NCBI GenBank assembly: GCA_048886185.1
Contig: JBHLKY010000009.1
Span: forward strand, 90,001-122,000
Length of the DNA: 32,000 nucleotides
Source of the DNA: Candidatus Hermodarchaeota archaeon
GTDB lineage: Archaea; Asgardarchaeota; Heimdallarchaeia; Hodarchaeales; Hodarchaeaceae
Direction of reading: 5' to 3'
Shown: piece after piece, positions 14,132 to 20,034 of the stretch
Numbering within the stretch: the first letter of the stretch is position 1
How the letters are laid out: each line of letters starts with the position of its first letter
The notes under the pieces: generated by a model
Database searches by the model: none
What the model was told of the DNA's origin: nothing
The model's input: only the letters and a program-made list of their open reading frames with translations
Position numbers and translations under genes: made by a program

Positions 14132-15712
14132 ATGATTTGTGTTACACCCTCAGAAGGGTTTTATGAGTTGATTAAGAATATAATAGGACGAAATCTTCCT
14201 GAAAGGCTTTTTGGTATAGAAATTATTCCTTATCAGGGTATTCATGCCTCAAGAACAAAAGGAAGGAGCCGAATTGGTACGAAATATCAACCATATGTTG
14301 TCACTAGAGACACAAAACGATTCTATGATGATGTTGACCACCTTTTAGGGTATCATTTTCTTGAGCTATTTGACGGTATGACAATCTCTTTTCATCATAT
14401 CCTGAGAAATGGAGATGGTGTCTTATTACCTATCATTGATTCTTTCGCGTCCTATGGAATTAGAAATATCACATTAGCTTCTACAGCTTTATTCCCTGTT
14501 CATTCACCTCTTTTGGAGCACATAGAGACTGGTGTTATCGGACGAATTGAAGGTAGTATGAATGGTCCAATTGGTCAGGCTATATCTAGGGGAGATGTGA
14601 ATATTCCCACTATTCTTAGATCACATGGGGGCCGCGCGCGAGCAGTTCAAGAAGGGAGTTTACATATTGATGTAGCTTTCATTGCTGCTTCTGCAGCTGA
14701 TTTTCTCGGAAATTTGACTGGTATTGAAGGGAGAAATGCTTTTGGTAGTCTTGGATATCCCCTTGAAACAGATTCACTCTACGCAGATGTAGTCATAGGA
14801 GTTACTGACACTATTCTTGATTATCCCCTAGAAAATGTAAGTATCCCTTCTAGTCGGGTTGATGCGATTCTTGAAGTTGATTCAATTGGTGATCCTTCAA
14901 AAATAGCATCAGGAAGTTTGAATAGAAAATTATCGCCCGATCGGCTTGAAATTGCTGAAAATGCAGTTCAAGTGATGTATCATTCAGGATTTCTACAAGC
15001 TGGATTTAATTGGCAGGCTGGCGCAGGGGGCATGTCCTTGGCAACCACTAAATATTTGAAAGATCTGATGGTTGATAAAAATCTAGAAGGTAGTTATATC
15101 TTTGGTGGAATTGCAAAGAATTCTGTCGAATTATTGGAAGCAGGCCTTTTCAGGATAATTTATGATGCCCAATCATTCGATTCTGAAGCAATTGACTCTT
15201 TAAAAAATAACTCTAATCATGTTGAAGTTTCAATAGATCATGCTTATAATCCTTTCAATAAAGGTTGTATTGCCAACAATACTGATTTCTCTGCTTTAGG
15301 GGCCACTGAAGTTGATGTTAATTTTAATATCAATGTCAATACTTTTAGTGATGGTACTCTAAACTCTGGAATAGGTGGACATCAGGATGCAGCTCGCGCG
15401 AAAATTAGTATGATTCTATTGCCATTGGTACGCAAAGTACCTTGTATCATTGATAATGTTGTCACAGTTTCTAGTCCAGGGGATTGTATTGATGTTATTG
15501 TGACAGATGGTGGAATAGCCATCAATCCTAAACGAGTAAAGTTGAAAAAACGTTTGGAAAAAGCTGGATTAAATATTCAATCCATAGATGATCTAAAAGA
15601 AGAAGCCATAAACTTGGCAGATCCAATAAAAGCCAATCTGACCGATAAAATTACTACATTAGTGGAATATCGGGATGGTACTCATTTGGATGTTATTTAT
15701 CAAATAGAATAG
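14132..15712 (+). CDS. citF: Citrate lyase alpha subunit / citrate CoA-transferase
   Basis: GMTISFHHILRNGD, LRSHGGRARA, HIDVAFIAA, GSLGY, QAGAGG, ATEVDVNFNINV, GIGGHQDAA, SPGDCIDVIVTDGGIAINP, VEYRDGT. The start may be the TTG at 14168. Confidence 0.88.
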   Translation: MICVTPSEGFYELIKNIIGRNLPERLFGIEIIPYQGIHASRTKGRSRIGTKYQPYVVTRDTKRFYDDVDHLLGYHFLELFDGMTISFHHILRNGDGVLLPIIDSFASYGIRNITLASTALFPVHSPLLEHIETGVIGRIEGSMNGPIGQAISRGDVNIPTILRSHGGRARAVQEGSLHIDVAFIAASAADFLGNLTGIEGRNAFGSLGYPLETDSLYADVVIGVTDTILDYPLENVSIPSSRVDAILEVDSIGDPSKIASGSLNRKLSPDRLEIAENAVQVMYHSGFLQAGFNWQAGAGGMSLATTKYLKDLMVDKNLEGSYIFGGIAKNSVELLEAGLFRIIYDAQSFDSEAIDSLKNNSNHVEVSIDHAYNPFNKGCIANNTDFSALGATEVDVNFNINVNTFSDGTLNSGIGGHQDAARAKISMILLPLVRKVPCIIDNVVTVSSPGDCIDVIVTDGGIAINPKRVKLKKRLEKAGLNIQSIDDLKEEAINLADPIKANLTDKITTLVEYRDGTHLDVIYQIE

Positions 15713-15730: not shown

Positions 15731-17872
15731 TCAAGCAAGTAGTTTTCTAGGTTTCTCGCCTTTGTATAATGCTTCTGAAAAATTGATTCTACGCATTTGT
15801 GGTTGAGATGTGATCTCCTCAAAATAATGAGCAGATAATCCTGCAATCCGACCATATATGAACACTGCTTTTGCAAGATTCGGATTAAGTCCCATGTCTG
15901 CAATTATGGCACCAATAACCCCATCAACGTTGATGGGAAGATCTATACCGCGTACTCTTTTAAAAATATCCGTAATGATTTTTGAAATCTCAATACACTC
16001 ACCTGCTATTCCCGCATGTTTTGCTTTAATCCATAAGACGTCCCGACGAGGATCTCGTGTGTGAAATCGGTGTCCTAGGCCTTGAATTCTTTTTCCTTCC
16101 TTCATATATTGACTGATATTTTCTTGGACTGCTTCGGAAAGATCTATACTCTTTTCTTTAGCAAGTGCTACACATTTCAGAAAAAATTGTGCGGCTTTTG
16201 CTCCAGCTCCTCCATGAACATCCGTTATCGCACTAACTCCTTGGGCGACAGCTACTTCATAAGCAGCTCGTACTGTAGCAGCAATAATCGTTGCTTGAGC
16301 TGAGGGTGGGGTTACTCCATGATCTACACTAGCTACTATCATTGCTTCAAGTACACCAGCTTTTTTCTCATCTATAACAGTTTCTCCTGTGAGAATCTGA
16401 TATATAATATGAGAGAAAGGTCGTTTTATGTCAATATTTTCTAGTATGTGTAAATTTCCAAATATTGAAGCCAGATATCCTGCTACACGACCTAAACAAA
16501 ACATCAACTGATTAGGAGGGTTCTTACTTTCTTGAATGCAATAATTTGTCAATATTTCATCCTGTAACAAATATTTTGCTATTGTTTTTGAAATATCTTC
16601 ATTTTCAATAATATTCACTTTGGGAACAGGTAATTTAGTAGCTTTTAGAGAAATCTGTTCCAATTCATTGGTCTGTTCCAATTTAGGAAAATTTCCTTTT
16701 ACAAGTAAATAAGCTGTTTCAATGAAAGTTTTCTTCTTAATTATGTCTTTAAGAGGGTACCCAGCTATTATTAAGTTATTTGGCTGAACTTTGGTAATAA
16801 GAGTTGCCCATCCTGCTTTTTCAGGCGGTTCTTCCCATGTTTTTATCATCTTTTCTTGATATCTTGTGACACTGAAATATTTCCAACCTTGGAGAATTTC
16901 CTTGACAGTTTCGACTAATTCATACTGACTATTGACAACAGTTACACCTGCTTTCTCTAAAGCTTCTTTTTTAGTTTTAAAGGTACCATAATCTTGTCCA
17001 GGTGTGATAATGGCCCCAGCATGCCCCATTGTTTTTCCTGAAGGTGCATTTGCACCAGAAATTAATGCGACGATCGGTATTGGATATTTCTTTTTATTAG
17101 CAATGATATCATTTGCAAGAAGTTCTTCTTGACTACCCCCAATTTCACCTGCTACCACAATGAGGTCTGTGTTTGGACATTGTTGAATGAGGGGAACGAT
17201 GTCAATAAATCTTGTTCCTATTGCTCCATCTCCTCCTATCCCTAAGACAGCGTTTTGTGCTATACCAGCACTCGCTAATGCGTCCGATAGATGGTAGAGA
17301 ATTGCTCCACTCCTTGAAATTATTGATACTCCACGTGGTCCAAATTCCCCCTCAGTTTTTTCTTCTGGATAAAAAATATCAGGAAGCATACCAATTTTTA
17401 TTCCCTCTGGTGGAAAAATAATCCCAGGTGTATTTCCACCAAAAAGTAGAGTATTGTGTTTTCTCGCTGCGACAATTATATCACGAACATCTTTTAGAGG
17501 GATACCTTCGGTTATTAAGACAATAATCGGGATACCTGACTCAATTACTTCAATCGCTACATCTCTTACTCCTGAATAATGTCTCCAGATACTTGAAACA
17601 GCAATATTTGGATGCTCTTTGAGACATTCTTTAACTCTGTCATAAACAGGAATAACTTCGTGAATTCGAGTGCCTCCTCTTCCAACAGAAATACCAGCTG
17701 TTACATTAGTGCCAAAATCTTTCATTAACCCAGCATGCTTTATACCTTGGCTTCCAAGACCAATAATTACAGTTTCAATCTTCTTAGTTTTTTGAATGTA
17801 GCTAGCTAATTCAGGACGGATTTGTTTGATGAGAAAATATAATACGCCTTGATCTACAGGAATCTTTTTCAT
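15731..17872 (-). CDS. ATP-citrate-lyase-alpha-like fusion: SucD-like CoA-binding/phospho-His domain plus citryl-CoA lyase/citrate synthase-fold domain
   Basis: N-half: ITEGIP, GGNTPG, SRSG, GIGGD, GEIGG, MGHAGA (phospho-His). C-half: WATLITKV, VDHGVTPPS, HGGAG, GLGHRFHTRDPR, PINVDG, GRIAGLSAH. Confidence 0.85.
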   Translation of the reverse strand: MKKIPVDQGVLYFLIKQIRPELASYIQKTKKIETVIIGLGSQGIKHAGLMKDFGTNVTAGISVGRGGTRIHEVIPVYDRVKECLKEHPNIAVSSIWRHYSGVRDVAIEVIESGIPIIVLITEGIPLKDVRDIIVAARKHNTLLFGGNTPGIIFPPEGIKIGMLPDIFYPEEKTEGEFGPRGVSIISRSGAILYHLSDALASAGIAQNAVLGIGGDGAIGTRFIDIVPLIQQCPNTDLIVVAGEIGGSQEELLANDIIANKKKYPIPIVALISGANAPSGKTMGHAGAIITPGQDYGTFKTKKEALEKAGVTVVNSQYELVETVKEILQGWKYFSVTRYQEKMIKTWEEPPEKAGWATLITKVQPNNLIIAGYPLKDIIKKKTFIETAYLLVKGNFPKLEQTNELEQISLKATKLPVPKVNIIENEDISKTIAKYLLQDEILTNYCIQESKNPPNQLMFCLGRVAGYLASIFGNLHILENIDIKRPFSHIIYQILTGETVIDEKKAGVLEAMIVASVDHGVTPPSAQATIIAATVRAAYEVAVAQGVSAITDVHGGAGAKAAQFFLKCVALAKEKSIDLSEAVQENISQYMKEGKRIQGLGHRFHTRDPRRDVLWIKAKHAGIAGECIEISKIITDIFKRVRGIDLPINVDGVIGAIIADMGLNPNLAKAVFIYGRIAGLSAHYFEEITSQPQMRRINFSEALYKGEKPRKLLA

Positions 17873-19155
17873 ATGGATGCCTCCTTCTTGAATTCAAAAC
17901 CTCTTCTGATTCCTTCCTTAATTACATCAGCCATGATCTTTTCATTCCCAACGACCATATCCAATAATTTTAAAGGCTCTGGGGTTTCGATTCTTGCTTT
18001 TTCAAGGTAGCTTTTCGCTGATGGTAGGTCAGTTCCTACCATTCTGCCATAAATTGGAATTATGCGTTCTTTATTACGATATCGTTCTCTTAAAGCCTGA
18101 ATTAATCCTCTAATGAATACATCACAGCTTGAGATGCCCCCAAATCTCGATGTGATGATGATATCAGTTAGGGGGTAATCCATTAAGAGATGAAACATTT
18201 GAGCTACTCGATTTTGTGGGGGTCCTCCTCCACTATCCATAAAATTAATGGGAACCACTTTACCATCAAAGAACTTATTACCAATATTCACAACTTCATC
18301 TATAGAAAATATCCCGTAACCTGCTCCCCCTGGAACAAGACCCACATGTAATACTTTTTCATCCTTGATTACATCATTGGAAAGTAGGTCTACATATGGA
18401 AATCCTTGGCTATAGGCTTTTTCTTCATTAGATGTTGGCTCAGCTATGTCATGTCGTCTGCTGGTTATTCCTAAAGTCTCCAAGAGCTTACTTTGCCTAT
18501 ATAAACCGTTATCATCGAGAACGATTTTTGCATCAGCAGCAATAACATTATCAGGCGTAATTATTACTGGATTGATTTCACAAAGCTTTGCATCAATATC
18601 CTGATACATTCGATAAGTTTTGTTAATAATTGAGGCAAGAGTCTCCTTCTGCTTTTTAGATAATTGGAGATCTTGATCTAATATTTCTGTAACTTCTCCT
18701 ATAATATTAGTTTGTAAAGCTCTATCATTGTTAATTATTTCCCTCTTTATAATCGTCTCAGGTCGATTTCGTGCAATTTCCTCAATATCTACTCCTCCAG
18801 AAGCGCTAACAACCAGAACATTATTGAAAGTATTTGGATCAGTTGTTACTCCTATATAACAACCCCCACGCTCTTCAACTGCTTCTTCGAAAAAAACTCT
18901 TTCCACTGGATGATCCTTGATTCGCAAATTCAAAAGCTCTGATGTTATATTTTTGGCTTCATTTAATGTATTAACTTTCTTTATTCCTCCTGCTTTACCT
19001 CGTCCCCCGATTAAAACAACAGCTTTTGCCATCGCAGGAAATTTCAGATCGAGTTTTTCGACTTCATCGACAGAATGAACGACACCAAATTGTTTTGGGA
19101 TTGGAATACCATTCTGTTCGAAAACTCTTTTCGATTCATGTTCATAGAGTCTCAA
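17869..19155 (-). CDS. ATP-grasp CoA-ligase beta subunit (SucC/citryl-CoA synthetase/AclB-like)
   Basis: MRLYEHESK, KAVVLIGGRGKAGGIK, SASGGVDIEEIA, EINP, DAKIVLDDN, NFMDSGGG, FGGISSCD, RMVGT. TTG start. Its stop overlaps the alpha-gene ATG (ATGA). Confidence 0.88.
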   Translation of the reverse strand: MRLYEHESKRVFEQNGIPIPKQFGVVHSVDEVEKLDLKFPAMAKAVVLIGGRGKAGGIKKVNTLNEAKNITSELLNLRIKDHPVERVFFEEAVEERGGCYIGVTTDPNTFNNVLVVSASGGVDIEEIARNRPETIIKREIINNDRALQTNIIGEVTEILDQDLQLSKKQKETLASIINKTYRMYQDIDAKLCEINPVIITPDNVIAADAKIVLDDNGLYRQSKLLETLGITSRRHDIAEPTSNEEKAYSQGFPYVDLLSNDVIKDEKVLHVGLVPGGAGYGIFSIDEVVNIGNKFFDGKVVPINFMDSGGGPPQNRVAQMFHLLMDYPLTDIIITSRFGGISSCDVFIRGLIQALRERYRNKERIIPIYGRMVGTDLPSAKSYLEKARIETPEPLKLLDMVVGNEKIMADVIKEGIRRGFEFKKEASI

Positions 19156-19419: not shown

Positions 19420-20034
19420 TTATTTCCCTAGGAATAAGCGTTGTTCCCATTCATCAATTGCTTCGTGGATATCCTCTAAATATTTCACTTTCTTAGCACG
19501 AACATCACGATTAAAACTAGCAATGTCGTAAAGTAGTCGTGAGGACTGACTAGTTTCTGCAAGAGCATCTCTAAATTGATCGATAAAATCAGGAATTCTT
19601 TCAGGAGACTTTTCCCAAAAATTCGATATATTTTCTCTTAAAGATTGAATCATAATACGTAGATCACCTGCTTCAGAGACAGTGATTAATGTGCTTGCCC
19701 TTTCTTGAATTCTGCTTTTTATTTGTTGAATAAAGCGTTTCGCAGCCTCACTACGATTTTTCACTATTCCTGCAGATATCCAATTTTCAGTAACCACTTC
19801 AATAAGTTGAAAGACGGCTGCGTCTTCATTTCCTTGTATTTCAGGGAGATAATGAAATAATCCTAATTTAGTAATGACAAAACGGAAATTTGAGCTAAGA
19901 TATTGACGTTCACGAGGAGCAAGCTCAATTCGTTTCAGCAAATCGCGAAAGTCCTTTGCACTCTTTCTTCCAGATTGAAAATCGATCGTTAAATGTGGTT
20001 TAATTTTTTCGCAAACCTGATCGACTACTCTCAT
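19420..20034 (-). CDS. Hypothetical, predicted helical protein (204 aa)
   Basis: Long ORF with AAGGTG SD and ATG, no competing ORF. No family recognised. Confidence 0.7.
   Translation of the reverse strand: MRVVDQVCEKIKPHLTIDFQSGRKSAKDFRDLLKRIELAPRERQYLSSNFRFVITKLGLFHYLPEIQGNEDAAVFQLIEVVTENWISAGIVKNRSEAAKRFIQQIKSRIQERASTLITVSEAGDLRIMIQSLRENISNFWEKSPERIPDFIDQFRDALAETSQSSRLLYDIASFNRDVRAKKVKYLEDIHEAIDEWEQRLFLGK

Follow-up and report, generated by a model that had tools for sequence, protein, structure and literature searches.

We analysed a 32,000-nucleotide (nt) stretch of contig JBHLKY010000009.1 from a Candidatus Hermodarchaeota archaeon (the window, to which all coordinates below refer) that carries the gene for an unusual ligase-lyase fusion protein. 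This gene lies on the minus strand at 15731..17872, as defined by its open reading frame (ORF), translation and Pfam matches (CoA_binding, Ligase_CoA, Succ_CoA_lig and Citrate_synt), and its 713-amino-acid (aa) product joins a CoA-ligase half resembling the alpha subunit of succinyl-CoA synthetase (SCS; residues ~30-330) to a lyase domain of the size of a citrate synthase (CS; residues 355-713). The SucD-like ligase half (16883..17785, minus strand, assigned from PDB and NCBIfam matches) contains the phospho-histidine motif GHAGA in its sequence at 17012-17026 (minus strand). The lyase domain (15734..16810, minus strand) combines a full citrate synthase fold, as judged from an AlphaFold2 model and VIA structure alignment, with a signature of the citryl-CoA lyase (CCL) type. 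Its motifs on the same strand are DHGVTPPS (16301-16324), VHGGAG (16202-16219), GLGHRFH (16061-16081), INVDG (15920-15934), YGRIAG (15839-15856) and QMRRI (15785-15799). Unless fusion residues are named, residues of the lyase domain are numbered below as protein residue minus 344 (protein P0002, residues 345-713).

We conclude that the domain belongs to a distinct and widespread clade of the CS/CCL superfamily, which we call long CCL and which unites the signature of CCL and ATP-citrate lyase (ACL) with the complete CS fold and catalytic set. The original prediction, made from the sequence of the window, had described a helical insertion of 106 aa in a CCL-like domain and had proposed a CCL-CS intermediate still fused to a CoA ligase. 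Its landmarks are all exact: W355 is encoded at 16810, the string AYLLVKGNFP ends at fusion residue 396 and KKAGVLEAMIVASVDHG begins at residue 503, so that exactly 106 aa (397-502, encoded by 16367-16684) lie between the two. In alignments and in secondary structure assigned by DSSP, this segment (16367..16684, minus strand) comprises five helices and a second "repeat" helix.

Segment, fold and active site of the lyase domain

The segment represents the helices of the CS large domain that ordinary CCLs and the lyase modules of ACL lack, and it is not a foreign insertion. In a MAFFT alignment of 97 sequences, the stretch aligned to domain residues 54-141 is filled by 87 residues in 42 members of the long family and by 87-98 residues (about 92) in 13 CS, and it is empty in 31 short CCLs, in 2 fused forms of the short type and in 7 ACL modules. 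The CCL structure 6hxp from PDB matches the domain in two pieces (CCL 5-47 = domain 11-53; CCL 33-252 = domain 142-367), while the CS 1vgp matches it colinearly (1vgp 26-366 = domain 22-366). The same division is found in the profile searches: NCBIfam CCL models match the domain in two stretches and CS models span it end to end with low scores; short Asgard CCLs cover only positions 8-58 and 164-355 of the Pfam profile Citrate_synt (PF00285), and fusion residues 357-691 match profile positions 10-352 of 357 without a break. The earlier statement that short CCL and ACL forms are devoid of the segment and that CS has extra helices at this place is thus confirmed by the two-piece 6hxp match, by column occupancy and by Pfam. 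The idea that the insertion is special to this gene has to be given up, since the segment is the norm across a large family, of which at least 550 relatives were found in a scan of GTDB species genomes. Inside the segment, fusion residues D438 (in LLQD) and G461-R462 (in LGR) are invariant in the family, and E425 and S428 (in EDIS) are nearly so. In the global alignment domain residue D94 is aligned with D in 10 of the 13 CS, and L116-G117-R118 with (I/L)-A-K in 12 of them. As a separate observation, the CCL-like protein P0142 (482 aa) matches the long-family hidden Markov model (HMM) at 11-76 and again at 134-365. The ~160 residues between these stretches find no match in the model, which suggests a different and larger insertion at the same site and may mark the site as an indel hot spot.

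The AlphaFold2 model of the domain, built on a 46-row alignment, has a mean predicted local distance difference test (pLDDT) score of 95.6. In this model DSSP places the segment helices at 54-69, 83-93, 95-103, 108-126 and 130-135, followed by a helix at 142-151. Citrate and methylcitrate synthases occupy the top Foldseek ranks with full-length alignments, and the CCL 6hxp aligns over 242 columns with 34% identity, compared with 17-24% identity for CS. VIA-align superposes the model on CS and methylcitrate synthases with Z scores of 33-36 and root-mean-square deviations of 2.7-3.9 Å over 326-349 aligned residues. Fewer than 45 residues are left unaligned, hence the segment of 88-106 residues must superpose on CS helices; the superposition that had been called for in the original prediction therefore puts the segment on the large-domain helices of CS.

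A homodimer model of the domain scored 0.81 in ipSAE (interaction prediction score from aligned errors; best control 0.01) and passed a mark reached by 20 of 30 proteins solved as same-chain pairs and by 1 of 23 solved as single chains, a pass that may mirror likeness only, because CS dimers are among the solved structures. At least 91% of the contacts recur between the homodimer runs, and the partner has a pLDDT of 86 or more; the predicted interface consists of domain residues 73-99 (within the segment), 177-209, 258 and 348-353. CS dimers form a helical sandwich in which a C-terminal arginine reaches the active site of the partner. The predicted homodimer resembles this arrangement, including the C-terminal Arg pointing into the partner site. 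Two of the segment helices (domain 83-103) would help to build the CS-type homodimer, in which case the enzyme would be a dimer and not a D2 tetramer of the CCL/ACL type.

The catalytic set is complete. H174, H209, H257, R265, D306, R331 and R350 are invariant in 42 of 42 long-family rows and match the CS columns; we take them to be equivalent to H238, H274, H320, R329, D375, R401 and R421' of pig CS. In ACL the residues corresponding to H209 and R350 are F and Y, respectively. DHGVTPPS fits the CCL pattern DHG-x-x-PPS and contains a one-residue indel relative to CS that is common to CCL and ACL; this motif and the 34% core identity to 6hxp bear out the CCL-type character that had been read from the motifs. 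Three Asgard genomes (G045, G080 and G053) encode CS-like proteins of 325-335 aa (L097, L098 and L099) that form a long branch of their own. In these proteins D replaces the first catalytic His (H174 column) and H replaces G210, and one of the copies carries an in-frame TGA; they are a divergent CS-fold subfamily that is perhaps non-catalytic or has another chemistry.

The original prediction had also pointed to an echo between two helices and to the proposed origin of CS by internal repetition. Helix A (TFIETAYLLVKGNFP; 16685..16729, minus strand) stands immediately upstream of the segment and helix B (PFSHIIYQILTGETV; 16376..16420, minus strand) at its end, both located by alignment. The echo is present and weak: TFIETAYLLVKGN in helix A and PFSHIIYQILTGE in helix B have 3 identities in 13 positions, and ordinary CS displays the same echo. 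A profile-profile comparison of the two helices by hhalign gave a non-significant E value of 0.17, and internal repetition has no significant sequence support. Helix A also aligns to the CS helix FEE.AYLL..G.LP, and the single CCL helix aligns with either helix A or helix B, so that the indel boundaries coincide with two similar helices, which we infer to be compatible with unequal recombination. A second pair, segment helix 106-129 and helix 322-345, reached hhalign E values of 0.002-0.005 at a probability of only 7-12%, and we treat this similarity as unproven.

Distribution and phylogenetic position of the long family

The best sequence match of the domain among solved structures is the CCL of Hydrogenobacter thermophilus (6hxp; 122 bits, 34% identity). 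A HMMER search of 1.84 billion representative sequences returned the domain's own family first (45-55% identity), in the form of ~370-aa stand-alone and ~715-aa fused proteins, and next the CCLs of 250-280 aa, at 30-40% identity and matched in two stretches. The domain does not reach the cut-offs of the NCBIfam CS models (49-88 bits vs. cut-offs of 330-590) or of the best NCBIfam CCL model NF004866 (200.2 bits vs. 245). The best 80 of the at least 550 relatives, on which the neighbourhood counts below are based, all span domain residues 1-367. The archaeal relatives come from Heimdall-, Hod- and Borrarchaeal Asgards, Thermoplasmatota, Bathyarchaeia and Undinarchaeales, and the bacterial ones from Bipolaricaulota, Zixibacteria, Aminicenantes, Myxococcota, Planctomycetota, Gemmatimonadota, Spirochaetes and others. 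In databases the family goes by the names "citrate/2-methylcitrate synthase" and "succinyl-CoA synthetase alpha subunit".

Trees were computed after the segment and both flanking helices had been dropped, which left 246 shared columns, and are unrooted. The careful tree separates CS from all other sequences with 100/100 support and puts the domain on the CCL/ACL side, which disposes of the concern that it might simply be an ordinary CS or methylcitrate synthase. The long family is monophyletic (100/100), as is ACL (100/100), which lies within the short CCLs. The free maximum likelihood (ML) searches, quick and careful, let the long clade arise from within the short CCLs, at support values below threshold (92/93 and 92/61); we did not rely on these topologies because constrained searches found better trees. 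When all short forms (CCL and ACL) were held together, the likelihood rose above that of the free trees by 11.6 (approximately unbiased test, p-AU 0.60), and in a second data set above that of the free tree by 14.8 (p-AU 0.77). With the long family between CS and the short CCL/ACL forms, a single indel of ~104 residues separates the architectures; either CCL/ACL may have lost an ancestral segment in one event, or the segment may have been gained once towards CS. The proposal of a CCL-CS intermediate thus stands for topology, as the best tree found places the family between CS and the whole of the short CCL/ACL forms, and it does not extend to direction because the tree is unrooted.

The description "still fused to a CoA ligase", if read as an ancestral state, finds no support: fused proteins and stand-alone ones are intermixed in the trees, and the ligase half is nearest to SCS alpha. 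This half is nearer to SCS alpha (2yv2, 197 bits) than to AclA (6hxj, 117 bits) or to the small subunit of citryl-CoA synthetase (CCS; 6hxq, 104 bits) in comparison with PDB sequences, which suggests a separate fusion event. The reverse statement, that the fusion is derived, was also dropped; stand-alone forms are basal in the quick tree and the base of the careful tree is a polytomy. Two further proteins, P0153 (575 aa) and P0259 (555 aa), have SucD-like halves fused to short CCL modules without the segment, and their branches lie among the short CCLs, separate from ACL as well as from the long family. Judged from these sequences, fusion of a ligase alpha subunit to a lyase seems to have happened several times.

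Proposed function and alternative explanations

The fusion gene is preceded on the same strand by the gene for a SucC-like ATP-grasp beta subunit (428 aa; 17869..19155, minus strand; Pfam ATP-grasp_2 and Ligase_CoA), and the two genes overlap in the sequence ATGA, in which the beta subunit gene stops (TGA) and the fusion gene starts (ATG). An orphan gene for CitF, a citrate CoA-transferase (14132..15712, plus strand; Pfam and TIGR01584), lies convergent to the fusion gene, its product scoring 452 bits on Pfam CitF and 501.4 bits on TIGR01584 (cut-off 501.45). Directly upstream of the beta subunit gene there is a 204-aa ORF (window 19420-20034, minus strand) that belongs to no Pfam family and is kept at the same position, with 85-88% identity, in close Hodarchaeales/Heimdall relatives (L004-L006 and L008).

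The domain likely functions as the CCL half of a second, SCS-derived ACL-like enzyme. Our main argument for citryl-CoA as the substrate is that in every gene arrangement the domain has a partner enzyme that should produce citryl-CoA. A SucC-like gene precedes the SucD-lyase fusion in ~65 of the best 80 loci. The stand-alone long CCL directly adjoins CitF in L014, L069 and in the second copy of L046, and the fused long form has CitF as a neighbour in this window, in its close relatives and in L032, L033 and L077; the loci with a CitF neighbour include Thermoplasmata, Bipolaricaulota/Thermotogae-labelled genomes and Undinarchaeales. In a metagenome-assembled genome (MAG) of Thermoplasmata (L014:3127-6225), for example, genes for an HD-domain protein, CitF and a stand-alone long CCL follow each other on one strand with overlaps or gaps of 1-4 bases. 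In a Myxococcales MAG (L070:2369-9572) an operon-like row of genes encodes an aconitase-family protein (600 aa) and the two subunits of a LeuCD-type enzyme (large, 420 aa; small, 160 aa), then a stand-alone long CCL, and after it a 495-aa protein that matches no Pfam family and resembles SucC only distantly (3ufx_B, E 1.6e-9) and a SucD-like protein of 321 aa.

In the proposed mechanism, the translationally coupled SucC-like beta subunit and SucD-like half would make citryl-CoA from citrate, ATP and CoA via the phospho-histidine, and the CS-fold domain would then split citryl-CoA into oxaloacetate and acetyl-CoA. The reaction would lie close to equilibrium and may also proceed backwards. CitF, encoded by the adjacent orphan gene, could probably supply the same lyase with citryl-CoA without the use of ATP. 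The source assembly (4.84 Mb, 96% complete) has two CitF genes, the second at G000:C12:111298-112692, and no CitD or CitE/HpcH was found in this 96%-complete genome; CitF together with the CS-fold lyase suggests a carrier-free citrate lyase. The genome contains three paralogous ligase systems. A canonical ACL at C1:92222-95305 is composed of AclB (with Citrate_bind, the only PF16114 match in the genome) and AclA with a short lyase module. SucC and SucD are encoded ~10 kb away at C1:104323-106311 (SucD above its cut-off, SucC at 355 bits vs. 375.55). The pair in the window is the third paralogue, and both of its ligase parts score below the NCBIfam cut-offs (SucD-like half 219 bits vs. 336; beta subunit, SucC, 225 bits vs. 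370).

Taken as a whole, the best explanation of these results, that a long-CCL clade of this architecture forms dimers, has an SCS-derived ACL-like function and is separated by one indel in the topology given above, is in our judgement reasonably probable. Several observations weigh against it. The segment taken alone, cut at 106 or at 88 aa, gave no Citrate_synt match in Pfam and only chance-level matches, and when a family-segment HMM was run against CS, CCL and ACL sequences, CS scored no better than shuffled controls; a C-terminal ACL helix with the pattern F..GR..G..AH drew weak matches of ~10 bits. We therefore base the homology of the segment to CS on its position, length and fold and on a few aligned motifs. 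In the free ML trees the long clade lies among the short CCLs, two of which branch outside this grouping at 92/93, and the order CS - long family - short CCL/ACL is the topology of best likelihood found, not a proven one. Lyase-only and hydrolytic chemistry cannot be told apart from the sequence because every CS catalytic residue is kept. The beta subunit has no Citrate_bind (PF16114) match in Pfam, and the citrate specificity of the ligase is therefore deduced from context only. Finally, with a canonical ACL already present in the same genome, it is not evident why a second enzyme for citrate cleavage would be needed.

Among the alternatives, the one that survives best is that the same enzyme works as an ATP-conserving citrate synthase, in which acetyl-CoA and oxaloacetate are condensed to citryl-CoA, the SCS-like half recovers ATP and the missing CS is replaced. 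We consider it unlikely, albeit with a real chance of being correct. A classical CS was not found in the 96%-complete genome, the only PF00285 genes being the fusion gene and the canonical AclA, and two further genomes (G083 and G084) combine the long form and ACL with no CS; three others (G081, G082 and G085), however, hold both the long form and a classical CS. Among 81 sampled Asgard genomes CS occurs in none of the 7 with the long fused form, and 13 genomes with CS are without the long form, but related genomes are not independent and this 7-vs-13 pattern may reflect few events. The retention of the full CS fold and catalytic set would suit a synthase. In Desulfobacter, ACL runs in the direction of synthesis and yields ATP. 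With about -8 kJ/mol for cleavage, the ACL reaction lies close to equilibrium (PMC13147460), which also speaks for such a use. On the other side, a Re-citrate synthase or a reductive route could meet the needs for citrate and 2-oxoglutarate, and the adjacent CitF fits citrate breakdown at least equally well.

A second alternative holds that the pair is no citrate enzyme and acts on another tricarboxylate or acyl-CoA, such as 2-methylcitrate with propionyl-CoA or a citrate analogue. Coexistence with canonical ACL and/or CS in several genomes would be accounted for in this way, and so would the SCS-like ligase without Citrate_bind, the position of the stand-alone form behind LeuCD-type aconitase-family genes in the Myxococcales MAG, the NCBI family name "citrate/2-methylcitrate synthase" and the abundance of acyl-CoA genes in the window. 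Nevertheless, CitF, which in the window falls just short of the equivalog cut-off, recurs beside family members in distant lineages, the nearest characterised relative is the H. thermophilus CCL, and all residues that bind oxaloacetate and citrate in CS are invariant (CS and methylcitrate synthase share them), so we regard this alternative as distinctly improbable. That the domain is an ordinary hydrolytic CS fused by chance to a SucD-like protein is very improbable: the length of a complete CS, the fold, the catalytic residues and the predicted dimer of CS type would fit, but the domain branches away from CS with CCL/ACL at 100/100, stays far below the cut-offs of the NCBIfam CS models, carries the CCL/ACL-type DHG(V)xPPS signature with its common one-residue indel and is consistently linked to enzymes making citryl-CoA, a linkage that would be futile with a hydrolytic synthase.

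Relation to known enzymes and meaning of the family

The long family, which we read as the lyase half of an ACL-like enzyme, can be compared with three known systems. With the H. thermophilus CCL (6hxp; PRK06224 models) it shares the best core match, the DHG-x-x-PPS motif, the catalytic His, His and Asp together with the Arg set, a place on the same side of the split from CS and the linkage to an SCS-like citryl-CoA synthetase; CCL differs in having ~260 aa and no ~104-residue segment, and its solved form is reported as a D2 tetramer. CS and methylcitrate synthases (1a59, 1vgp, 3hwk and 1aj8) are alike in colinear fold, length, size and place of the segment, and an identical catalytic and substrate-binding set, and the predicted dimer with its C-terminal Arg reaching the partner adds to this likeness. 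Unlike the long family, CS has a DHE/G-x-N-AST signature, occurs neither fused to CoA ligases nor in clusters with them, and hydrolyses citryl-CoA, and the identity is 17-24%. Type I ACL (AclB/AclA of Chlorobium and Methanothrix, human ACLY; 6hxj, 6hxi and 6hxh) has the same translationally coupled two-gene architecture, in which an ATP-grasp beta subunit is followed by a CoA-binding/phospho-His alpha subunit fused to a lyase of the CS superfamily. Its lyase module, in contrast to the long family, is short (DHGPAVSGA), with F at the second His and Y at the C-terminal Arg; AclB carries Citrate_bind, and the ligase halves encoded in the window are nearer to true SCS.

Clusters of "SCS alpha/beta + citrate synthase", with the synthase separate or fused to alpha, have been described in Planctomycetes (OTU-14, DG20) (Thiel et al., 2017; PMC5459899) as putative citrate-cleaving enzymes that stand between CCS/CCL and a postulated type II ACL; they occur in Planctomycetes, Spirochaetes and Phycisphaerae, all of which are also found among the relatives of the long family. 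Likened by their description, these clusters are probably the same family as long CCL. The type II ACL was postulated for Magnetococcus (Mmc1_3638/3639) and for tubeworm symbionts (Endoriftia) (Hugler and Sievert, 2011); no Magnetococcus or Endoriftia locus is among the best 80 of the at least 550 relatives. Neither the paper on the Planctomycetes clusters nor that on type II ACL mentions a CS-sized lyase domain, and our literature search found no paper that notes one.

The names under which the family is annotated can mislead reconstructions of the tricarboxylic acid (TCA) cycle and the reductive TCA cycle in Asgard archaea, Thermoplasmatota, Bathyarchaeia and many uncultured bacterial phyla. 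Verschueren and colleagues reportedly argued in 2019 that the citrate synthase of the Krebs cycle derived from an ancestral citryl-CoA lyase of the reverse cycle. A review (PMC9871338) recounts this proposed descent of CS from CCL, a direction that would correspond to a single gain of the segment. The earlier argument compared two end states, and the long family is a third, living state. It allows one to ask at the bench whether the ~104-residue block decides between dimer and tetramer and between lyase-only and hydrolytic chemistry, and whether it was gained or lost. The long family could thereby show how citrate synthase and the citrate-cleaving enzymes are related to each other. A bolder reading, rather improbable in our estimate, is that the long-CCL clade is a surviving transitional form, with CS architecture and citryl-CoA either free or channelled, and that it serves as an ATP-conserving citrate synthase in Hodarchaeales and other anaerobes without CS. 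If this were true, it would root the CS/CCL tree experimentally and would alter the picture of central carbon metabolism in Asgard archaea and, through them, before the eukaryotes.

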